From an uncultured Bacilli bacterium (lineage in GTDB: Bacteria; Bacillota_I; Bacilli_A; RFN20; CAG-288), in contig CAUUFA010000006.1 of the NCBI GenBank assembly GCA_963544395.1, positions 37,997 through 101,996 of the forward strand: a stretch of DNA of 64,000 nucleotides. Reading direction: 5' to 3'. Below the pieces are notes generated by a model. That model ran no database searches, was not told the DNA's origin, and saw only the letters and a program-made list of their open reading frames with translations. Positions 35,386 to 51,245 of the stretch are shown one piece after another. A program made the position numbers and the translations under genes. Position 1 is the first letter of the stretch. Every line of letters starts with the position of its first letter.

Positions 35386-35873
35386 ATGAATGTCATCAAA
35401 AGAAAGACGGACACAGTCGAGCGAATTGAAACGGCATTATGTACTTTATTGCAATCCGAAACGTTATCAGAAATCAAAATGCGTGAAATATGCTCTTTAG
35501 CAACAATCCATCATCAAGCGTTTTACAACCATCTATTTGATCAGTTTGATCTCTACAAAGAAATGGAAAACAAAGCCATTCAAGAGGCCTTGACGATCCT
35601 GTCCTCGGGATTTTCAGACAACGCTTCGAACAATCAGAAAGAATACCTTGATCAGATTGCCGAAACAAAATACTTTTCCGGCTTTTTCAGCAAAAAGATA
35701 CTTCGCAGTTCAAAGACGGGTTGCTAAACTCTATTTATCCAATCTTGGAAAAAGAGATGAAAATCATGAGCCGAGAGAAATACCGCAGATACTTGACTCT
35801 CTATATCCTATGCGGTCCAATCTCTATTTTTGAAGCTTGGTTCAAACAAGAGCGCAAAGAACCTTCCGATTAG
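35386..35873 (+). pseudogene. TetR/DhaS-like regulator gene interrupted by a single frameshift in an A5 run
   Basis: The N-terminal HTH (SEIKMREICSLATIHHQAFYNHLFDQFDLY) is in frame 1. The C-terminal part (DTSQFKDGLLNSIYPILEKEM...LYILCGPISIFEAWFKQERKEPSD) is in the -1 frame. The junction is at caaaaag, 35691-35697. Confidence 0.6.
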
Positions 35874-35935
35874 ATTGCATTCCTGATTTATAAGATTGCA
35901 GGAAATATCGACATCTACCGCTGAGAAAACAACCT

Positions 35936-37342
35936 TCAGTGTGCTTTTCCTTCCGACAGCTTCTGAGCCATAAGGACACCCATGACAGAGGACATCATCA
36001 GTCCTCTTGTCCAGCCGGAAGAGTCGCCGAGGCAGTGCAAGCCGTGGATGTTGGTGTTGAGATCAGTGTCCATCTTGACCTTGTTGGAATAGAATTTCAG
36101 CTCCGGCGAATACAATAAAGTTTCCGAAGAAGCAAATCCAGGGACGACAAGATCCATCATCTTGATGAACTCGATGATATTGACCATGGTGCGGTAAGGA
36201 AGCGCAGCCGTGATGTCGCCGGCTTCTGCATCCGGTAGCGTGGGGACGACATTGGAGTGGGCGAGCTCGATCGGCCAAGTTCTCTTGCCATCCAGGATAT
36301 CCCCATACCGCTGGACGAGGATGTGACCGGCGCCGAGCATGTTAGTGAGCTCTCCGACTTTCTGCGCATAAGCGATCGGCTGATGGAAGGGTTCCGTGAA
36401 ATTATGGGAGCAGAGAATGGATAGGTTGGTATTCTCGCTCTTTTTCTCTTTGAAGGAATGTCCGTTGACGACAGCGAGGTCGTTGTCGTAGTTCTCCTGG
36501 GTGACGAAGCCTCCCGGGTTCTGGCAGAAGGTCCGGACTTTGTTTTTGAAGGGGTGCGGATAGCCGATGAGCTTGCCTTCGTAGAGCACCTTGTTGATCG
36601 TCTCCATGACTTCGTTTCTGACTTCGACTCGGACACCGATGTCGACCGGTCCTGGCTTGTGGGCGATGTGATGCTCGATGCAGAGCTTCTCCAGCCAGTC
36701 GGCTCCTCTTCTTCCGGTGGCGATGACGATCTGATCGCCGTAGACTTCCGCCTCACCGGATTTATCCTTGAGGATGACGCCCTTGCAGACATCTCCCTCG
36801 AGGATCAGGTTTTCGCACTCAGTTTCGAAACGGATCTCGACGCCATGCTCAAGCAGGTAATGCTCAATATCGGTATAAAGTTTCTCGGCCTTCTCGGTGC
36901 CCAGATGGCGGATGGGGCAGCGGACGAGATGAAGTCCCGCCTGAATCGCCTTCTTGCGGATTTCCTTCAGTTCGAAAGATTCGTCTGCTCCTTCGATGTG
37001 GGGATCGGCACCGAATTCCAGATAGATCTGATCGGTGTAATGAATCAAATCCTGAATAGTATTGCCTCCGATTAGCTCGGGCAGCTCTCCTCCCACCTGA
37101 TAATTGAGGGAGAGCTTCCCATCCGAGAATGCTCCGGCTCCGCTGAAACCGGAAGTGATGTGGCAGACAGGTTTGCAGTGGACACAATAGCCCAGCTTGT
37201 TTTTGGGGCAGACGCGCTGCTCCATCGACTTGCCTTTTTCGATCAGCAGGATCTTCGACTTCGATCCTCTGCGGATCAGCTCCAATGCTGTGAAGATGCC
37301 GCTAGGACCCGCACCGACGATAATCAGATCGTACTTGCTCAT
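35936..37342 (-). CDS. FAD-dependent oxidoreductase (COG2509-type)
   Basis: MSKYDLIIVGAGPSGIFTALEL is a GxGxxG dinucleotide fold. A GGAGGA RBS lies 7 nt upstream of the ATG at 37342. The TTG at 37357 is less likely. Confidence 0.8.
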   Translation of the reverse strand: MSKYDLIIVGAGPSGIFTALELIRRGSKSKILLIEKGKSMEQRVCPKNKLGYCVHCKPVCHITSGFSGAGAFSDGKLSLNYQVGGELPELIGGNTIQDLIHYTDQIYLEFGADPHIEGADESFELKEIRKKAIQAGLHLVRCPIRHLGTEKAEKLYTDIEHYLLEHGVEIRFETECENLILEGDVCKGVILKDKSGEAEVYGDQIVIATGRRGADWLEKLCIEHHIAHKPGPVDIGVRVEVRNEVMETINKVLYEGKLIGYPHPFKNKVRTFCQNPGGFVTQENYDNDLAVVNGHSFKEKKSENTNLSILCSHNFTEPFHQPIAYAQKVGELTNMLGAGHILVQRYGDILDGKRTWPIELAHSNVVPTLPDAEAGDITAALPYRTMVNIIEFIKMMDLVVPGFASSETLLYSPELKFYSNKVKMDTDLNTNIHGLHCLGDSSGWTRGLMMSSVMGVLMAQKLSEGKAH

Positions 37343-44635: not shown

Positions 44636-45535
44636 ATGAACGCTGAAGAAAAGAATGTCATGACGATTCTCACCTTGGCGAGAATTGTCGAGAATACGCT
44701 GTGGTACTGTCTTCCCAGCCGGAATCCGGAAGGGTTCTCTGCGGAGGAGAGAAAGAACCGTTTCAATGCGCTGACCGCTCTGACTTCCGAGGGAAGTCCT
44801 TTTGCGATGAACTGTGATAACAACGGCGACAACGGCAAGAAGCTGAAAGAAGATATGCGTTACTTTATCGACGATGTCTACGGCGATCCTGGCAGGATCG
44901 TCACGGTCGATCTCAATCAGAACGTGCACGTTGAGCAGTCTCTGATCCTAGAACTCTTCACGTCCTGCGTCACCTTAAGGTTCCGCCTTGAGGCGTTCCT
45001 CTCTGCCGCGAAGAAGGTGCTTGCGGAAAACAAAGCGCTTGAGCCAGAGTTCGAGACACTTCTCGATACCGATATCCGCTACTATCATTGTTTCGCCGGA
45101 AAGGTCTCCTGCATTCTCATCTCCAACAAATTCATGGAGCTCAATCAGAACGCTCAGAATTATGCGCAGAGTTATTCGAAACAGCACAACGGCGCTAATC
45201 CCAACCAGGATCCGGAGTTTGATGTCCGTCAGGATCCTTCCTTCCGTATGCTGGAGAACGAGTTCCACGAACTCAACAACGATATGATCATGGTCCTCAA
45301 CAACTACGGTGAGGACGATGTGGACTTCCGCTTCGCCAGAGAGCAGATCTACTCCGATTGCGACATCTTCACCGGTAAGAAGCAGACGACCGATCTCAAC
45401 GTCTTCTTCAATATGTTTGTCTCTTACTTCGACAAGCTCCTCTCTCAGCTTCAGAACCCGCTCAATGAGATGTTTCAGAAAGTCGGTGAGGATATGCAGA
45501 AAGAACAGGCTGCAGCCGCCGAGGAGGTGAAGTGA
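44636..45535 (+). CDS. Hypothetical acidic cytoplasmic protein (299 aa)
   Basis: It is a long ORF with a GAGAGAGG RBS. I recognised no motif. Confidence 0.5.
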   Translation: MNAEEKNVMTILTLARIVENTLWYCLPSRNPEGFSAEERKNRFNALTALTSEGSPFAMNCDNNGDNGKKLKEDMRYFIDDVYGDPGRIVTVDLNQNVHVEQSLILELFTSCVTLRFRLEAFLSAAKKVLAENKALEPEFETLLDTDIRYYHCFAGKVSCILISNKFMELNQNAQNYAQSYSKQHNGANPNQDPEFDVRQDPSFRMLENEFHELNNDMIMVLNNYGEDDVDFRFAREQIYSDCDIFTGKKQTTDLNVFFNMFVSYFDKLLSQLQNPLNEMFQKVGEDMQKEQAAAAEEVK

Positions 45536-45537
45536 TC

Positions 45538-45906
45538 ATGAAAGAAAACAATCAGGAGAAAGGACGTTCTCTCTATCCTTCTGAGATTGTCCTCTACAGC
45601 ATCTTCGGATCGATCTGGCTCGTAGGATTGGTGTTTGCTATCCTCGGAATGTTCGCTTATAACTATGGCAAGCTTTCAGAAAACAATCTTTATGCTTTGG
45701 AAAAGTCGTTTGCCAAGTTCTTCCATATGCAAGGCGCGATGGACTTCCGGCTTTGGGGCACGATCGTCATGGTTGTCATGATGATATGCTTCCTCATCAC
45801 CGTCTACGCCTATGCTGACCGAGCCGAGAAGAAGAAGGCGGCCGAGCGGAGAAAAGCGGAGAGAATGAAAATTCTCATGGAAGCCGACGCGACGAAGAAT
45901 TCCTGA
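45538..45906 (+). CDS. Small 2-TM membrane protein with a basic C-terminal tail
   Basis: It has two hydrophobic helices (IVLYSIFGSIWLVGLVFAILGMF and LWGTIVMVVMMICFLITVYAY) and then an EKKKAAERRKAERMK tail. It abuts the upstream gene. Confidence 0.55.
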   Translation: MKENNQEKGRSLYPSEIVLYSIFGSIWLVGLVFAILGMFAYNYGKLSENNLYALEKSFAKFFHMQGAMDFRLWGTIVMVVMMICFLITVYAYADRAEKKKAAERRKAERMKILMEADATKNS

Positions 45907-45925: not shown

Positions 45926-45957
45926 AAGCTCTTCCCTAATGTGGCGAAGAGCTTTTT
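45926..45957 (+). terminator. Rho-independent terminator
   Basis: aagctcttc/11-nt loop/gaagagctt forms a 9-bp stem that runs into ttttt. Confidence 0.65.
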
Positions 45958-45982: not shown

Positions 45983-46011
45983 TTGACAAACATCTGATTT
46001 CTTCCTAAATT
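45983..46011 (+). promoter_or_regulatory. Sigma-70-type promoter of the 46034-51160 operon
   Basis: TTGACA (45983-45988), a 17-nt spacer and TAAATT (46006-46011). Confidence 0.55.
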
Positions 46012-46033
46012 TTTTTTGTTACACGCTAGTGTA

Positions 46034-47197
46034 ATGTCTCTATTCTGTATGAGTCTAAGCCAAGAAAATCAGGGAAAAAATCTCTCCTCAGACGTCTCTG
46101 ATCTGGAGATTGTCCAGGAGAGTTCGTCCTCGTCAGCGAAAAAAATAAGGAAGGTCAAGAAGCAGAAAGCTCCAGCCTCCCGAAAACGGGTTTTGCTGAC
46201 TTCAGTTTTTCTAAGCCTCGTCACCACCGCCGTCGGTGGGATGGGCGGATATGTCCTCTTCGACATCTTTCATCCGAGCGAGACCTCCAGCTTTGTCGAT
46301 TATCAGACCGACTATGACCGCAAGAAAATCTCCTCTGCCCTTCAGCAGGGTAAAGGAATCTCTCTTTCTGCCATCGACCTGACAAATTACGCTCTGGATC
46401 TTCAGGTGGAGTCACCTTATGCCTTGACGATCGGCACCGGCCTTGTCAATGCGGCGGCCGGCGTGAAGCAGACCATCGAATCCTGCACGCTGACGACACC
46501 GGATGGCATCTTCAATCAGAACATCTCGGAATCGTCGATCGTTCACACGGCCAACCGCTTTTACGATGATGGCACGAAGATGAAGACCTACACCTGCAAG
46601 AAGACGGATGAATGGACCTCTTCCTTGCCTTCGAAGGATATGACTTATGACGATTATATCCAGAGCTACGGACGTCTGATCAAAGGCGAATACTGGGTGA
46701 GAGAAGCAGAACCTGAGCCGACAAAAGCCGTTCCCGAACGATACCTTTCCACCACGCCTTCGAAAGGCCTGAAAGATCATCGGCTCAACGGGGTGATCAT
46801 CTACACCATCACGCCTGGGACAGTCACAGACAGCAGAATCACCAAGACTGAAAACGGCTATCACCTCCATCTCACGCTCGACTATCTCAAAGCCACGTTC
46901 TACTACTCGGTTCAGATGAAGACCACGGGAAGCCTCGATGCAAGACCGACGTTTACAGCTTCCGAACTGGAGTTTGATTTAGATTCCTCAGGGCATCTTC
47001 TCTCCTCTTTCTTCAAAGACAGCTACCGGGTCAAGACCGGCATCACTACGGATGCTTCCGATGAGATGACGCAGTATTATTTCCGTTCTGATAACGGTGT
47101 TTTCACCAACACAGACGGAGTCAGTGTCGAAGGAAAGATTCCCACGATGTCCGAGAAGGACTTCACTGGGTATCAGCTCTTTCCGAAGGAGAAGTGA
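46034..47197 (+). CDS. Single-pass membrane protein with a roughly 310-aa extracytoplasmic domain (unknown function)
   Basis: It has a basic N-terminus (KKIRKVKKQKAPASRKR) and a TM helix (VLLTSVFLSLVTTAVGGMGGYVLFDIF). The ATG at 46034 lies downstream of the predicted promoter. The TTG at 46016 would lie at or just upstream of the predicted transcription start (about 46018). Confidence 0.55.
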   Translation: MSLFCMSLSQENQGKNLSSDVSDLEIVQESSSSSAKKIRKVKKQKAPASRKRVLLTSVFLSLVTTAVGGMGGYVLFDIFHPSETSSFVDYQTDYDRKKISSALQQGKGISLSAIDLTNYALDLQVESPYALTIGTGLVNAAAGVKQTIESCTLTTPDGIFNQNISESSIVHTANRFYDDGTKMKTYTCKKTDEWTSSLPSKDMTYDDYIQSYGRLIKGEYWVREAEPEPTKAVPERYLSTTPSKGLKDHRLNGVIIYTITPGTVTDSRITKTENGYHLHLTLDYLKATFYYSVQMKTTGSLDARPTFTASELEFDLDSSGHLLSSFFKDSYRVKTGITTDASDEMTQYYFRSDNGVFTNTDGVSVEGKIPTMSEKDFTGYQLFPKEK

Positions 47198-47200
47198 TCG

Positions 47201-50200
47201 ATGAAAAACAGGATGATTTATTCCCTTGTCTCTCTCGTCAGCCTCGTCATCGGCGGTGGGACAGTCTACGCCCTAAAAGGCCTGGAGAAGAACAAGGCGG
47301 ATGCAGCGGCGAAGAATCAGGCTCATGTTCAGGAGGAGACCGGTTTTGATAAGACCATCAACACGCTTCTTTCTTCCAAGGAGATGAGAGCAGAAGAAGT
47401 CAATATCCGCCTCAGCATCCCCACCTATGATGACATTCATTTCAAGATCAGTAATCTCGACGTTGATCTTTCCTCGATGTCGGATATCAAGGCTTTGCAG
47501 TGCAAGGGTAGCCTCAATGTCCGTTATGGCGATGCGGTCAACGATAACCTCCATTTTATTTATGAAAACGGCGGAAACCTTTACCTCACCTATGGTTCGA
47601 CAGGATACACCTTCCATGCCCCGACGACGATTGATGGCGTATTGAGCGTCCTCAACACCCTCAACATCAAGCTTCCTCTCTCCTCCACCGACGCAAGCCT
47701 AGACCTCTCTTCTCTTGCCGACAAGGCGCTTGCTGTCCTCAAGGACGTTCCGGAGACCAAGATGCCAGACGGCGGATATTCTTATGCCCTCAACCTCGAC
47801 GAAGCGGTCAAGGACCTCGGGCTCAGCGGTGTCAGAGGCAATCTCTACACTGATGGCGATCATGCATTGAAAGCGATCTCGCTTGCCTCCGACGGCATCC
47901 ATTATCAGGATAAGCTCACCATCGGATTAGGTGTTTCCGGCATCTCACTGAAAAAAGATAACGGATATCGGACTCTCACTTCCGAGGAGAAGAAGCGGTA
48001 TACTGATCTCAACAATGTCAACGGCGTCTTCTCCACCTTAAACCGACTTGTCGGCGAGAAGAAATTCAAAGCCGGATTCTCCGTGGATCTGAAAAATCAG
48101 AACCAGTCTGTGGCCATCGCTTTGACTGGAGATATCCGCGGCGATCTTTCCCGTGCCGGAAGCGATTATCAAAAAGGCTGCTATCAGGTCAATCTGAAGC
48201 ACGTTTCCGGAGACGAGACTCTCAATGAAGCTAGCCTTTATCACGAGGATGGGTTCACTTACCTTAGACTGAACCAGCTGATTCAGGGCAAGATTGCAAA
48301 CACCGATGTTGAGGATATTTTCGCTCTGCTTTCTGCTCAGACCGGGAAAGCTTCCATCCAGGATCTCTCCCAGGATTTTGCCAAGATCATCGCCGGATCG
48401 GATTTAGATAAGCTGATTCATAACAAAGACTTCTCTGTCTACAAGAATTTCATCCGCTCGCTGCGCCGGGAGAACGACACTATCGTTCTCACGCTAAGTC
48501 CGAAAGCGTTCGGATTAGGCGGAGAGGAGATTGAGATTCACATCACTTGCACCCAGGAAGGTGGGTTGTCTGCTCTTTCTATCTCCGGTTTCGAGTATCA
48601 GGGCTATCAGGCCAGCCTCACGCTCGATTTGGAGGATTACCTCGGTTTTGAGACAGTCGATAAGGCCAAGTATCCGGATCTGCATATCAGCGTGCCTCTT
48701 TTCCACACTGTCCTTGACTTAGCCAAACAGAGAAAAGTCTCCGCTGATTATGCTCTGACTATCTCCGACGGAGAGAAGAACGTTGCGGCAGGTGGAACAA
48801 TCGATGCTGATCTTGCCGATTTCAGCAAGGCGGGCAAGAAATACGGAAACTATCATCTCTCCTTGAAGATGAAGGAGAACCAGAGCCCATTATCCTCCTC
48901 TTCTCTCGATGCTTATTATCAGGATCAGAATCTGTATGTCGGATATGGCGAAGTATTGAAGAACAGCATCATCGGCGCAGAGTTAAACGATATCTTCGCC
49001 CTCTTTGATAACAAGAGCAATACCCCGGTCGACGGGAAAACCTTTGCGAAGATTGCCTCCGCTCTGGAGACGATCAAGAACTCCGCTAAGTTAAAGAACG
49101 ACTTATCGAAGATCAAGGATTTTTATTCCCTCAAGCCGCTTGACTCTTTCTTGAGCATCAGCCCTGTCAGCGACAAGCAGATTGATGTGACGCTCAATCT
49201 CGCTTATCTTTTTGAAGGGACTGCCCTGTTAGATCAGATCAAGGGTGTCACCCTCTCTCTTAACAGCGATGATAAATCCCTCCTTGGCCTTTCTCTTCAC
49301 GATCTTCACTATCAGGACAAAGCGATTGATTTCACGCTTTCACTTCAGAAGGAGTATCGTCAGAAGGAAGGCCGATTGACCGAAGAGGAGAAGAGAGCCT
49401 ATGCGCCGATCTCCTCGGCTTCAAAATTTGTCTCGACCTTCCTCAATGTCCCGATGCAGCTCAGAAAGTTCAGCTTCGATGTCTCAGGAAGCGTAGGAAA
49501 AGACGATAGCCAGAAGACTTTCCTTAAAGCAAACGCCGCTGTCGATCTTTCCGATCTAGATCATCCTAACCTGGAAGGCAAAGTCACCATCACCTTGCCA
49601 CCGGATCAGCTAGAGAATAAGACGACTGATGAAAACATCGCCTTCCGCTATTCTGGTGTGAAAGAAAAGGATGGTCTCGGTGGACGTTTCATCGCTCAAT
49701 ACAACGACAAGATGCATGTCCTTTTAGAGCGTTCGACCATCACGGATATCATCAACATCGTCGATCGGAGAAGCGAGACTAACCTCCTCAACCGCTATCT
49801 TTCCGACACTTCTGCCTTTGTCACCGGCATGCCGATCGTCGATGCTTTCCTAACCAAAGACTACCTCTCTCTTCTCAACGACTATGTCCGCAAGGTGGAG
49901 TTTACGGAGAATGCGATCCTGCTCACAGTTCATGGCACACTCTTTGGGGAGAAAGATGATCCGGATCATCCTTGCCACGACAATGTCATCACGGTGACCT
50001 TAGATACGGAGAAGAAGACCGTTCAGAAGATCGGCTTAGAAGGCGGATATTCGGATTACCGTATTCAGGGAAACATCGAATTCAAATCCTTTGAAGAAGC
50101 AAAGAAAGTTGACATCCTAGAGTACAGTGAAGCGACGAAGGATAAGTTCATCGATATGGAGGGTTTCAAAACCTTAGTGAAGGCTGGCATCGCGACGACC

Positions 50201-51160
50201 GAGCACTCTTACTTTGAGCTCTCGGCGGAGCTCTCGGTCAATCTTAGCATCCCGGTTGTTTCGACCGATAGCATCAACACCCATGCCACCTGTGAGATGT
50301 ATATCGAAAACCAGGAAGTTTACGCCTATCTCTCCTTCAACAACCACAACATGAGGCTTCAGCAGGATGGATTCTATGGGACGGAATTTTTCATCCATGA
50401 GAAAGAAGTCTATACGACATTGACCCGCAATCAGAAGGGAAAGCTGACTTCCTCCCTCAAGAAGATGACCCAGAAAGAAGTGTTCCGGAATCTCCTCTAC
50501 TATGTGACTGACTACATCCTCGACCTCTCCGATATGGAAGCGCAAGTGCTCGGCTTCATCTCGGTGAATGTCGGCGGCATCGTCTTAGGAAACATCTACG
50601 GGCAGGAGAACGAAAACAACACCGCCGAGAAAAAGAATGTGCTGAATCGTGATTTCTCCTCCTTCGTTAAGCAGGCAAAGTACCAGGATGGCACTTTCGC
50701 TCTCGATATGGACGTCAATTCCATTTTAGGCAGTGACATCACCAGCCTGGTCAATGTGAGTTCGGCCAGAGCAAATGTTCAGATCGATACCAAGAGCTAT
50801 GAGCTTACCCATGCTAACGTTTCCGTTGAAGCGACGGCTGTCTCTATGATCGGCGTCTCCTTCTCCCTGACGATGAATCGGAATCTTAATGCGACAGGCG
50901 ATCATTGGTCTAGCTCTCGCTACTGCACCTTTGTTCAGGAGATGAAGCACGAGTTCGGATCCTTTGATGACAACAGCAAGCTTCCGGAATATCAGATTCT
51001 CAGCATCAAAGCGAACCGGGCGACCGGATTGCTCGCTAGTACCTTGAAGTACAGCAGCATCACTATAGAGGACAACTATTCTGATGGCTTGAAGAACGAG
51101 CTGAACTTCAGTTACAGCGAAGCGACGAGAGTTTTCTTCTTCGGTGGAACTCGACTGTAG
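47201..51160 (+). CDS. Giant (1319-aa) N-terminally membrane-anchored protein built from repeated roughly 225-250-aa modules
   Basis: It has an N-terminal TM helix (MIYSLVSLVSLVIGGGTVYAL). A related motif recurs as ...GVLSVLNTL (~47635), EDIFALL (48311-48331), NDIFALF (48986-49006) and ITDIINIV (~49739). The ATG is 4 nt after the upstream stop. Confidence 0.6.
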   Translation: MKNRMIYSLVSLVSLVIGGGTVYALKGLEKNKADAAAKNQAHVQEETGFDKTINTLLSSKEMRAEEVNIRLSIPTYDDIHFKISNLDVDLSSMSDIKALQCKGSLNVRYGDAVNDNLHFIYENGGNLYLTYGSTGYTFHAPTTIDGVLSVLNTLNIKLPLSSTDASLDLSSLADKALAVLKDVPETKMPDGGYSYALNLDEAVKDLGLSGVRGNLYTDGDHALKAISLASDGIHYQDKLTIGLGVSGISLKKDNGYRTLTSEEKKRYTDLNNVNGVFSTLNRLVGEKKFKAGFSVDLKNQNQSVAIALTGDIRGDLSRAGSDYQKGCYQVNLKHVSGDETLNEASLYHEDGFTYLRLNQLIQGKIANTDVEDIFALLSAQTGKASIQDLSQDFAKIIAGSDLDKLIHNKDFSVYKNFIRSLRRENDTIVLTLSPKAFGLGGEEIEIHITCTQEGGLSALSISGFEYQGYQASLTLDLEDYLGFETVDKAKYPDLHISVPLFHTVLDLAKQRKVSADYALTISDGEKNVAAGGTIDADLADFSKAGKKYGNYHLSLKMKENQSPLSSSSLDAYYQDQNLYVGYGEVLKNSIIGAELNDIFALFDNKSNTPVDGKTFAKIASALETIKNSAKLKNDLSKIKDFYSLKPLDSFLSISPVSDKQIDVTLNLAYLFEGTALLDQIKGVTLSLNSDDKSLLGLSLHDLHYQDKAIDFTLSLQKEYRQKEGRLTEEEKRAYAPISSASKFVSTFLNVPMQLRKFSFDVSGSVGKDDSQKTFLKANAAVDLSDLDHPNLEGKVTITLPPDQLENKTTDENIAFRYSGVKEKDGLGGRFIAQYNDKMHVLLERSTITDIINIVDRRSETNLLNRYLSDTSAFVTGMPIVDAFLTKDYLSLLNDYVRKVEFTENAILLTVHGTLFGEKDDPDHPCHDNVITVTLDTEKKTVQKIGLEGGYSDYRIQGNIEFKSFEEAKKVDILEYSEATKDKFIDMEGFKTLVKAGIATTEHSYFELSAELSVNLSIPVVSTDSINTHATCEMYIENQEVYAYLSFNNHNMRLQQDGFYGTEFFIHEKEVYTTLTRNQKGKLTSSLKKMTQKEVFRNLLYYVTDYILDLSDMEAQVLGFISVNVGGIVLGNIYGQENENNTAEKKNVLNRDFSSFVKQAKYQDGTFALDMDVNSILGSDITSLVNVSSARANVQIDTKSYELTHANVSVEATAVSMIGVSFSLTMNRNLNATGDHWSSSRYCTFVQEMKHEFGSFDDNSKLPEYQILSIKANRATGLLASTLKYSSITIEDNYSDGLKNELNFSYSEATRVFFFGGTRL

Positions 51161-51204
51161 TTACTGACGGGAAGAGAAGATAAATCTCTTTCTGAACATA
51201 AAAA

Positions 51205-51245
51205 AACCATCGGTTCCTCTGTTTCCAGGGGGATCGATGGTTTTT
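51205..51245. terminator. Bidirectional rho-independent terminator between convergent genes
   Basis: A long hairpin pairs aaccatcggttcc with gggatcgatggtt and is flanked by A6 (5') and T5 (3'). Confidence 0.6.

Follow-up and report, generated by a model that had tools for sequence, protein, structure and literature searches.

A two-gene membrane operon from probably wall-less Bacilli encodes a giant modular protein and a partner, both with a predicted LolA/LprG-like fold

The stretch of DNA analysed here (the window) comprises 64,000 nucleotides of contig CAUUFA010000006.1 (assembly GCA_963544395.1, positions 37,997 to 101,996 of the forward strand) from an uncultured Bacilli bacterium. It carries two open reading frames (ORFs) on the same strand, at 46034-47197 (387 amino acids, hereafter the partner) and 47201-51160 (1319 amino acids, hereafter the giant), which form a tight two-gene unit. 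We found that the giant is built of tandem, homologous modules, and that the same two genes lie side by side in related genomes, so that the gene pair is the conserved unit. Both proteins are predicted to be anchored in the membrane and to adopt the open half-barrel fold of LolA and LprG. Tentatively, and with a confidence that falls a little short of even, we propose that the pair is a surface device whose LolA/LprG-like barrels bind hydrophobic ligands and relay them to or from the membrane. The genes and the parts of their products are as follows.

46034..47197, + strand: partner gene, 387 amino acids, with a Lys-rich cytoplasmic tail, a transmembrane helix at residues 53-71 and an ectodomain of ~290 amino acids (ORF, transmembrane prediction)
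46319..47143, + strand: ectodomain of the partner (residues ~96-370), predicted from AlphaFold and Foldseek to be a LolA/LprG-like open barrel
47201..51160, + strand: giant gene, 1319 amino acids (ORF)
47213..47275, + strand: N-terminal transmembrane anchor of the giant (residues 5-25), which may be an uncleaved signal-anchor; G19 and Y23 are conserved
47342..48025, + strand: module M1, residues 48-275 (hhalign, M1 with M2 E 1.2e-5, M1 with M3 E 1.3e-5)
48026..48700, + strand: module M2, residues 276-500 (hhalign, M2 with M3 E 1.5e-21)
48701..49414, + strand: module M3, residues 501-738 (the same M2 with M3 match, and the AlphaFold model)
49415..50155, + strand: module M4, residues 739-985 (hhalign, M2 with M4 E 1.6e-8, M3 with M4 E 4e-8; model)
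50156..50890, + strand: fifth module, residues 986 to about 1230 (predicted structure only)
50891..51157, + strand: C-terminal tail, residues 1231-1319, one helix and three short strands; neither LPXTG nor any other known anchor is present

When the giant was compared with itself by BLASTP, no repeats were found at E ≤ 10. This silence reflects the low pairwise identity of the window's own modules (13-23%), and not an absence of repeats. Windows of 225 residues were then compared by hhalign with the whole profile of a 17-sequence family alignment, and off-diagonal matches were observed at offsets of ~225-245 residues, with E down to 3e-19. With explicit boundaries, the profile-profile comparison delimited four homologous modules of ~230 amino acids, M1 to M4. 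The initial annotation, made from the letters of the window, had described a modular, beta-rich giant with a period of 225-250 amino acids and four recurring motifs (NLYLTYG..., FTYLRLNQ..., NLYVGYGE... and MHVLLERS...). The period agrees with the offsets measured here, and the four motifs occupy the same alignment columns.

No significant repeat signal was detected by hhalign in the C-terminal third of the giant (residues 986-1319; lowest E about 1e-3). In the AlphaFold model, residues 986 to ~1230 form a helix, six long strands, a helical insert, and two short and three long strands, which is the element order of M2-M4, and are followed by a tail of ~90 residues. The weaker fifth copy that had been suggested near 50480 falls at the equivalent strand-6/helix position of the model; it is thus recovered in the predicted structure and not in the sequence, and the earlier estimate of about five modules becomes five by structure and four by sequence. 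The first half of the fifth module is the best-conserved part of the giant and carries TTE and GFYxTEFF motifs. A head-and-stalk design with a conserved distal head was considered and rejected, as conservation is fairly even along the giant (29-39% by region).

To model the giant, residues 120-1319 were submitted to AlphaFold with the 17-sequence alignment. Each of the five modules was predicted to open with a helix, followed by 6 long strands, a helical insert and a further 5 strands (in M2: helix, 6 strands, 3 helices, 5 strands), that is, 11 strands, the strand count of LolA. The top Foldseek matches in the PDB were LolA from three species (4ki3, 8cgm and 7tpm), Mycobacterium tuberculosis LprG (3mh8 and 3mh9), RseB and staphylococcal Csa1B, with probabilities of 0.95-1.00, E about 1e-4, and target-normalised TM-scores (template-modelling scores) of up to 0.42-0.44. 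The partner, modelled with a 21-sequence alignment, gave a confident prediction (pLDDT, the predicted local distance difference test, 84.8; pTM, the predicted TM-score, 0.78). Its matches were Porphyromonas gingivalis LolA3, Staphylococcus aureus SAOUHSC_02783, the LolA-superfamily protein NE2245, LprG (including the lipid-bound entries 3mha and 4zra) and LolB, with a probability of 1.00 for 4egd and 3mh8 and target-normalised TM-scores of 0.38-0.44. The ApoB-100 beta-barrel region (9bd8) was also among the structural matches of the giant and of the partner (probability 0.85 and 0.93, respectively), which may reflect a general similarity of open beta-sheets.

The models of the giant and of the partner, obtained independently, therefore agree on the fold class. 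By hhalign the two sequences showed no homology to each other (probability below 1%), so that the common fold class comes from structure prediction. Because no TM-score reaches 0.5 and the sequences show no link to the superfamily, we consider membership of both proteins in the LolA superfamily probable at the level of the fold and homology unproven. The partner had been reported as unplaceable in any family; by sequence this is still the case, and its model now assigns it a single module of the fold class predicted for the giant's modules.

A bridge- or groove-like transport protein had been offered as one interpretation of the giant. Like AsmA/TamB/YhdP, Vps13/Atg2 and the Lpt bridge, the giant is long and beta-rich, carries an N-terminal transmembrane anchor and is predicted to be extracytoplasmic, and lipid transport is conceivable for it. 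Unlike them, it is modelled as discrete modules, broken by helical bundles and by inserts of their own, with no continuous groove, and its host has no outer membrane. No AsmA, TamB, Vps13 or LptA/C structure was among the 50 Foldseek matches listed for the giant, and no AsmA or DUF490 (TamB) domain was matched in it by Pfam. The groove of the earlier proposal is thus not borne out, and the idea of lipid handling is strengthened by the LolA/LprG-type half-barrels.

Each protein has a single N-terminal hydrophobic segment, as had been noted for the pair (residues 5-25 of the giant, residues 53-71 of the partner). In the partner this segment is preceded by a Lys/Arg-rich stretch of ~50 residues, which predicts a type II membrane protein with its N-terminus inside and its barrel outside. 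The giant begins with MKNR followed by the helix, so that the same orientation is predicted. Neither protein has a Cys within or following its hydrophobic segment, hence no lipobox was found, and the giant C-terminus (...RVFFFGGTRL) lacks LPXTG, as previously stated. A conserved Gly-rich/Tyr motif closes each helix (VGGxGGY in the partner; G19 and Y23 in the giant), which suggests that neither helix is cleaved off and that the two may pack together. An alternative that alters the mode of attachment and leaves the function as proposed is that the N-terminal segment of the giant is a signal peptide, cleaved after residue 24 (V-Y-A|L), and that the secreted protein is held at the surface by the membrane-anchored partner. 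The small-x-small motif VYA after the hydrophobic segment and the co-encoded partner would fit such a secreted form. We regard it as distinctly unlikely: the A at position -1 is not conserved among homologues, and the conserved G19 and Y23, together with their resemblance to the GGxGGY motif of the partner helix, point to a retained helix under selection.

To learn how widely the two genes travel together, loci of giant-family members were compared. Of 29 loci examined, 26 have a partner homologue as the gene immediately 5′ to the giant and in the same orientation; the loci come from three families of the order and include short-form loci of the two families other than that of the window. In two loci (L028, G162:C1, and L030, G137:C1) the giant has no detectable upstream partner, and ABC-type genes of ~650-700 amino acids lie nearby on the opposite strand. 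Several genomes carry a second giant copy, in tandem or divergent, for a total of 1-3 copies per genome; the genome of the window has one. Relative to the syntenic locus L001, identity is 49-64% for the neighbouring genes, 40% for the partner and 30% for the giant, from which it follows that the gene pair evolves faster than its surroundings. Lipid-metabolism genes were considered as associated neighbours and discarded, since each was seen once (an acyltransferase beside L005; near L001, a weak match to phospholipase C).

A further neighbour bears on a different function. In 11-12 short-form loci of other families (L020-L022, L032-L038 and L040), a ~200-amino acid HTH_3 (XRE) protein with 3-4 transmembrane helices is encoded divergently beside the partner gene, and RseB and MucB are among the structural matches. 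The pair could then be an envelope sensor of the RseB/MucB type: its LolA-like domains would respond to membrane damage, or to lipids or lipoproteins that are out of place, and the signal would go to a transcription regulator embedded in the membrane. A homologue of the regulator is indeed present in the window's own genome (E 1e-37), on the same contig and outside the window (G000:C6:22803-23459), but it lies unlinked, ~60 kb from the operon. Five tandem modules, and relatives of up to 4000 amino acids, would be excessive for a sensor, and where the regulator does adjoin the pair it may merely control its expression. A sensor role via the XRE regulator is less likely than the proposed ligand relay, and we consider it very improbable.

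The distribution of the giant family was related to the biology of the host. FtsW/RodA (PF01098) is absent from the genome of the window and from 12 other sampled genomes of the genus; it is found in the walled control genomes and, within the order, in other families. With no FtsW/RodA in 13 genomes of the genus, the lineage is probably wall-less, as the initial annotation had surmised; the hosts are genome-reduced gut or rumen Bacilli. Among 151 genomes of the order, FtsW/RodA was found in 3/49 carriers of the giant family and in 43/102 non-carriers (odds ratio 0.09, Fisher p 3e-6), and the anti-association recurs inside three separate families. In one of the three FtsW/RodA-bearing carriers the giant copy is pseudogenised; a decayed copy with 10 in-frame stops lies at G135:C114:2641-4170, in a genome with FtsW/RodA. 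A FabF-type ketoacyl synthase is missing in the window's genome, as it is in 129 of the 151, and the host cells therefore probably depend on external acyl chains. In about nine genomes of the order an ORF of ~800 amino acids with two ketoacyl-synthase matches is present in place of FabF.

The partner-type domain is more widespread than the giant family, occurring in 98 of the 151 genomes. It was also detected inside ORFs of 1700-2900 amino acids in walled genera, which keep FtsW/RodA, or in genera without the giant family (e.g., G064:C18, G110:C3 and G122:C22); hence other multi-domain architectures of the partner-type fold exist. In addition, the genome of the window encodes, outside the window, a 235-amino acid paralogue of the partner ectodomain (G000:C11:13323-14030, minus strand; hidden Markov model search E 2.8e-20), without the cytoplasmic tail and the transmembrane helix, which may be a truncated or a cytoplasmic copy.

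Neither whole protein matched Pfam or NCBIfam, and sequence searches of the PDB were likewise empty; the statement that the pair belongs to no known sequence family and shows no catalytic motif and no adhesin repeats is upheld. A word-indexed search of 5.8 billion proteins returned 5, and then 13, relatives of the giant, all unnamed, and an exhaustive profile search of 1.84 billion protein cluster representatives returned 277 members of the family. The named records are metagenome-assembled genomes of uncultured Bacilli, Bacillota and 'Erysipelotrichaceae'. No description of tandem LolA-like arrays, or of the family of the giant or the partner, was found in the literature. We conclude that the giant is a new architecture on a known (predicted) fold, and that neither protein belongs to a described family.

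Architectures were analysed in 164 giant-family sequences. The M1-M2-M3-M4-C-terminal layout was found in 50 of them, and many relatives are of ~950 amino acids, with two modules detected, with or without the C-terminal region. Two relatives of ~2350 amino acids combine five modules with Listeria-Bacteroides repeats (Flg_new), and the largest, of 4042 amino acids, has at least 7 modules and eight CBM5/12 modules. The number of modules thus varies from 2 to at least 7 with the ends retained, and this variation was seen between species and families. These fusions in distant relatives, together with the fast divergence of the pair, point to a location at the cell surface.

Variation of this type recalls the periscope proteins, the variable-length surface stalks of Gram-positive cocci (PMC8201768), in which the number of tandem modules between the membrane-proximal and the distal ends also varies among relatives. 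The differences are that periscope proteins have near-identical small SHIRT/Rib repeats, are wall-anchored by LPXTG and vary in number within a species, whereas the giant's modules are of ~230 amino acids, 13-23% identical, of LolA-like predicted fold, and vary between species or families only. Unlike MSCRAMM and periscope wall-anchored adhesins, the giant has no LPXTG and no Pfam adhesin repeats, and its genus probably has no wall to anchor to.

The pair could accordingly be imagined as a structural or adhesive surface fibre that carries no lipid: the half-barrels would be rigid spacers, with a distal head attaching to plant, fungal or host surfaces, or would form a protective coat replacing the wall, and the partner would anchor or organise them. 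Such a fibre explains the variable length, the carbohydrate-binding and Flg_new fusions, the paralogy (1-3 copies, often in tandem) and the fast evolution typical of exposed surface proteins equally well, and the near confinement of the family to genomes without FtsW/RodA also fits it. However, neither an adhesin repeat family nor a carbohydrate-binding domain was recognised by Pfam in the window's giant, nor did clear homology to a characterised adhesin family emerge, and the fold class predicted for both proteins is that of hydrophobic-ligand carriers. A strictly conserved, membrane-anchored partner of the same fold would be unexpected for a simple fibre, and modules that have diverged so far are unlike the near-identical repeats of length-variable adhesins. 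On balance we judge the fibre less likely than the ligand relay, but a serious rival to it.

For the ligand relay that we tentatively prefer, the following arrangement is proposed. The partner would have its Lys-rich tail inside, one transmembrane helix, and one LolA/LprG-like open half-barrel outside. The N-terminal transmembrane segment of the giant would hold a chain of five half-barrels projecting outward, with a reach set by the number of modules. The barrels would bind fatty acids, glycerolipids or glycolipids, sterols, or the acyl chains of lipoproteins, and would pass them between the surroundings and the single cell membrane, with the partner acting as a loading or unloading station at the membrane surface. 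We infer ligand binding and transfer from the predicted folds. A more specific version is an extracellular lipid relay particular to wall-losing bacteria, in which a tethered LolA-like loader and a chain of 2 to at least 7 barrels take acyl lipids or sterols out of host membranes or food particles and deliver them to the cell membrane, and whose gain accompanies the loss of peptidoglycan in several lineages. If this is true, fatty-acid-auxotrophic wall-less gut Bacilli could feed their membrane in this way; so specified, the proposal is doubtful.

Several observations weigh against a ligand relay. First, there is no sequence link to the LolA or LppX_LprAFG families: searches of the PDB sequences with the giant, the partner and 40-sequence module profiles gave no match, and 40 separate modules compared with Pfam at E ≤ 10 gave no match to LolA, LppX_LprAFG, LolA_like, DUF2092, DUF4367 or related families. 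Second, the model of the giant is of modest quality (mean pLDDT 64.5, pTM 0.41), and the structural similarity is moderate (Foldseek E about 1e-4, target-normalised TM-scores 0.38-0.44). LolA-fold proteins, moreover, have jobs other than the carriage of lipids, e.g., the Csa antigens and GerS. Third, clustering of the neighbours of the 29 loci yielded the partner and the XRE regulator only, with no recurrent lipase, acyltransferase or transporter, and the regulator is a recurrent neighbour only in other lineages. Finally, the Fisher test of the association with FtsW/RodA ignores phylogeny, and the loss of FabF, being order-wide, does not separate carriers from non-carriers.

Among known systems, the closest comparison is with the LolA/LolB/LprG-LppX/RseB superfamily. 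As in its members, an unclosed antiparallel barrel of ~11 strands with helices in the opening is predicted, and the proteins would be extracytoplasmic and membrane-tethered; LprG and LolB are lipid-anchored. Here the anchor is a transmembrane helix and not a lipobox, no sequence relationship was detected, and known members are single-domain proteins of 180-280 amino acids (RseB has two domains), in contrast to five modules and a single-module partner. The host, a probably wall-less cell with a single membrane, also has no second membrane to deliver to. Mycoplasma pneumoniae P116, the surface lipid-uptake protein of a wall-less lipid auxotroph, is large and N-terminally anchored and extracts lipids from the environment. 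Compared by description only, the giant resembles it as a large protein predicted to be anchored by its N-terminus at the surface of a probably wall-less cell; the fold of P116 is unrelated and non-repetitive, and P116 is not known to have a co-encoded partner.

The expression signals of the operon and its borders were also analysed. The partner gene ends in a TGA stop at 47195-47197, 3 nucleotides before the ATG of the giant (47201). The start of the partner gene is ambiguous (TTG at 46016, ATG at 46034 or ATG at 46049), and the public protein cluster of the partner (P0167) starts at 46049, giving 382 amino acids. The signals in and around the operon are these.

45926..45954, + strand: hairpin terminator closing the upstream two-gene unit (RNA fold -15.8 kcal/mol, z -4.8), followed by UUUUUGUUU
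45983..46011, + strand: candidate sigma-70-like promoter, TTGACA-17-TAAATT, 10/12 consensus match
47186-47191, + strand: Shine-Dalgarno sequence AAGGAG of the giant gene, inside the end of the partner gene
51202..51245, no strand assigned: bidirectional intrinsic terminator downstream of the giant, with a 20-bp stem between an A-run and a U-run (-29.9 kcal/mol, z -6.96)

The AAGGAG inside the 3′ end of the partner gene and the 3-nucleotide gap make translational coupling of the two genes likely. A U-rich stretch lies directly 3′ of the 45926-45954 hairpin. Terminator hairpins stand on either side of the pair, in agreement with its description as a self-contained envelope operon; the strong bidirectional terminator had been placed almost exactly (51205-45). 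The promoter that had been assigned to the operon is present as a site, and is to be read as a consensus match only, since 10 promoter-like sites in the region do not exceed the shuffled expectation of 6.5 ± 2.5. The upstream unit (window 44636-45906) encodes a 299-amino acid acidic protein and a 124-amino acid protein with 2 transmembrane segments, neither of a Pfam family. In four genomes it keeps synteny with the gene pair (its proteins are 64% and 56% identical to those of L001) and, having its own terminator, is a neighbour outside the operon. Farther upstream, at window 28001-36000, the GC content drops to 0.34-0.39 from about 0.50 elsewhere, which suggests a foreign island.

Wall-less, genome-reduced Bacilli of the gut and rumen are abundant, mostly uncultured and without fatty-acid synthesis, and how they obtain and organise membrane lipids is the question to which this operon may speak. 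Were the pair merely structural, it would still represent an unannotated surface-protein family of 277 cluster representatives with no Pfam entry, which can now be named for annotation. As a two-protein module of predicted barrels that tracks the loss of wall-building enzymes, it is a concrete candidate for lipid supply; chaining several barrels on a cell with one membrane would be a novel arrangement of the LolA fold.

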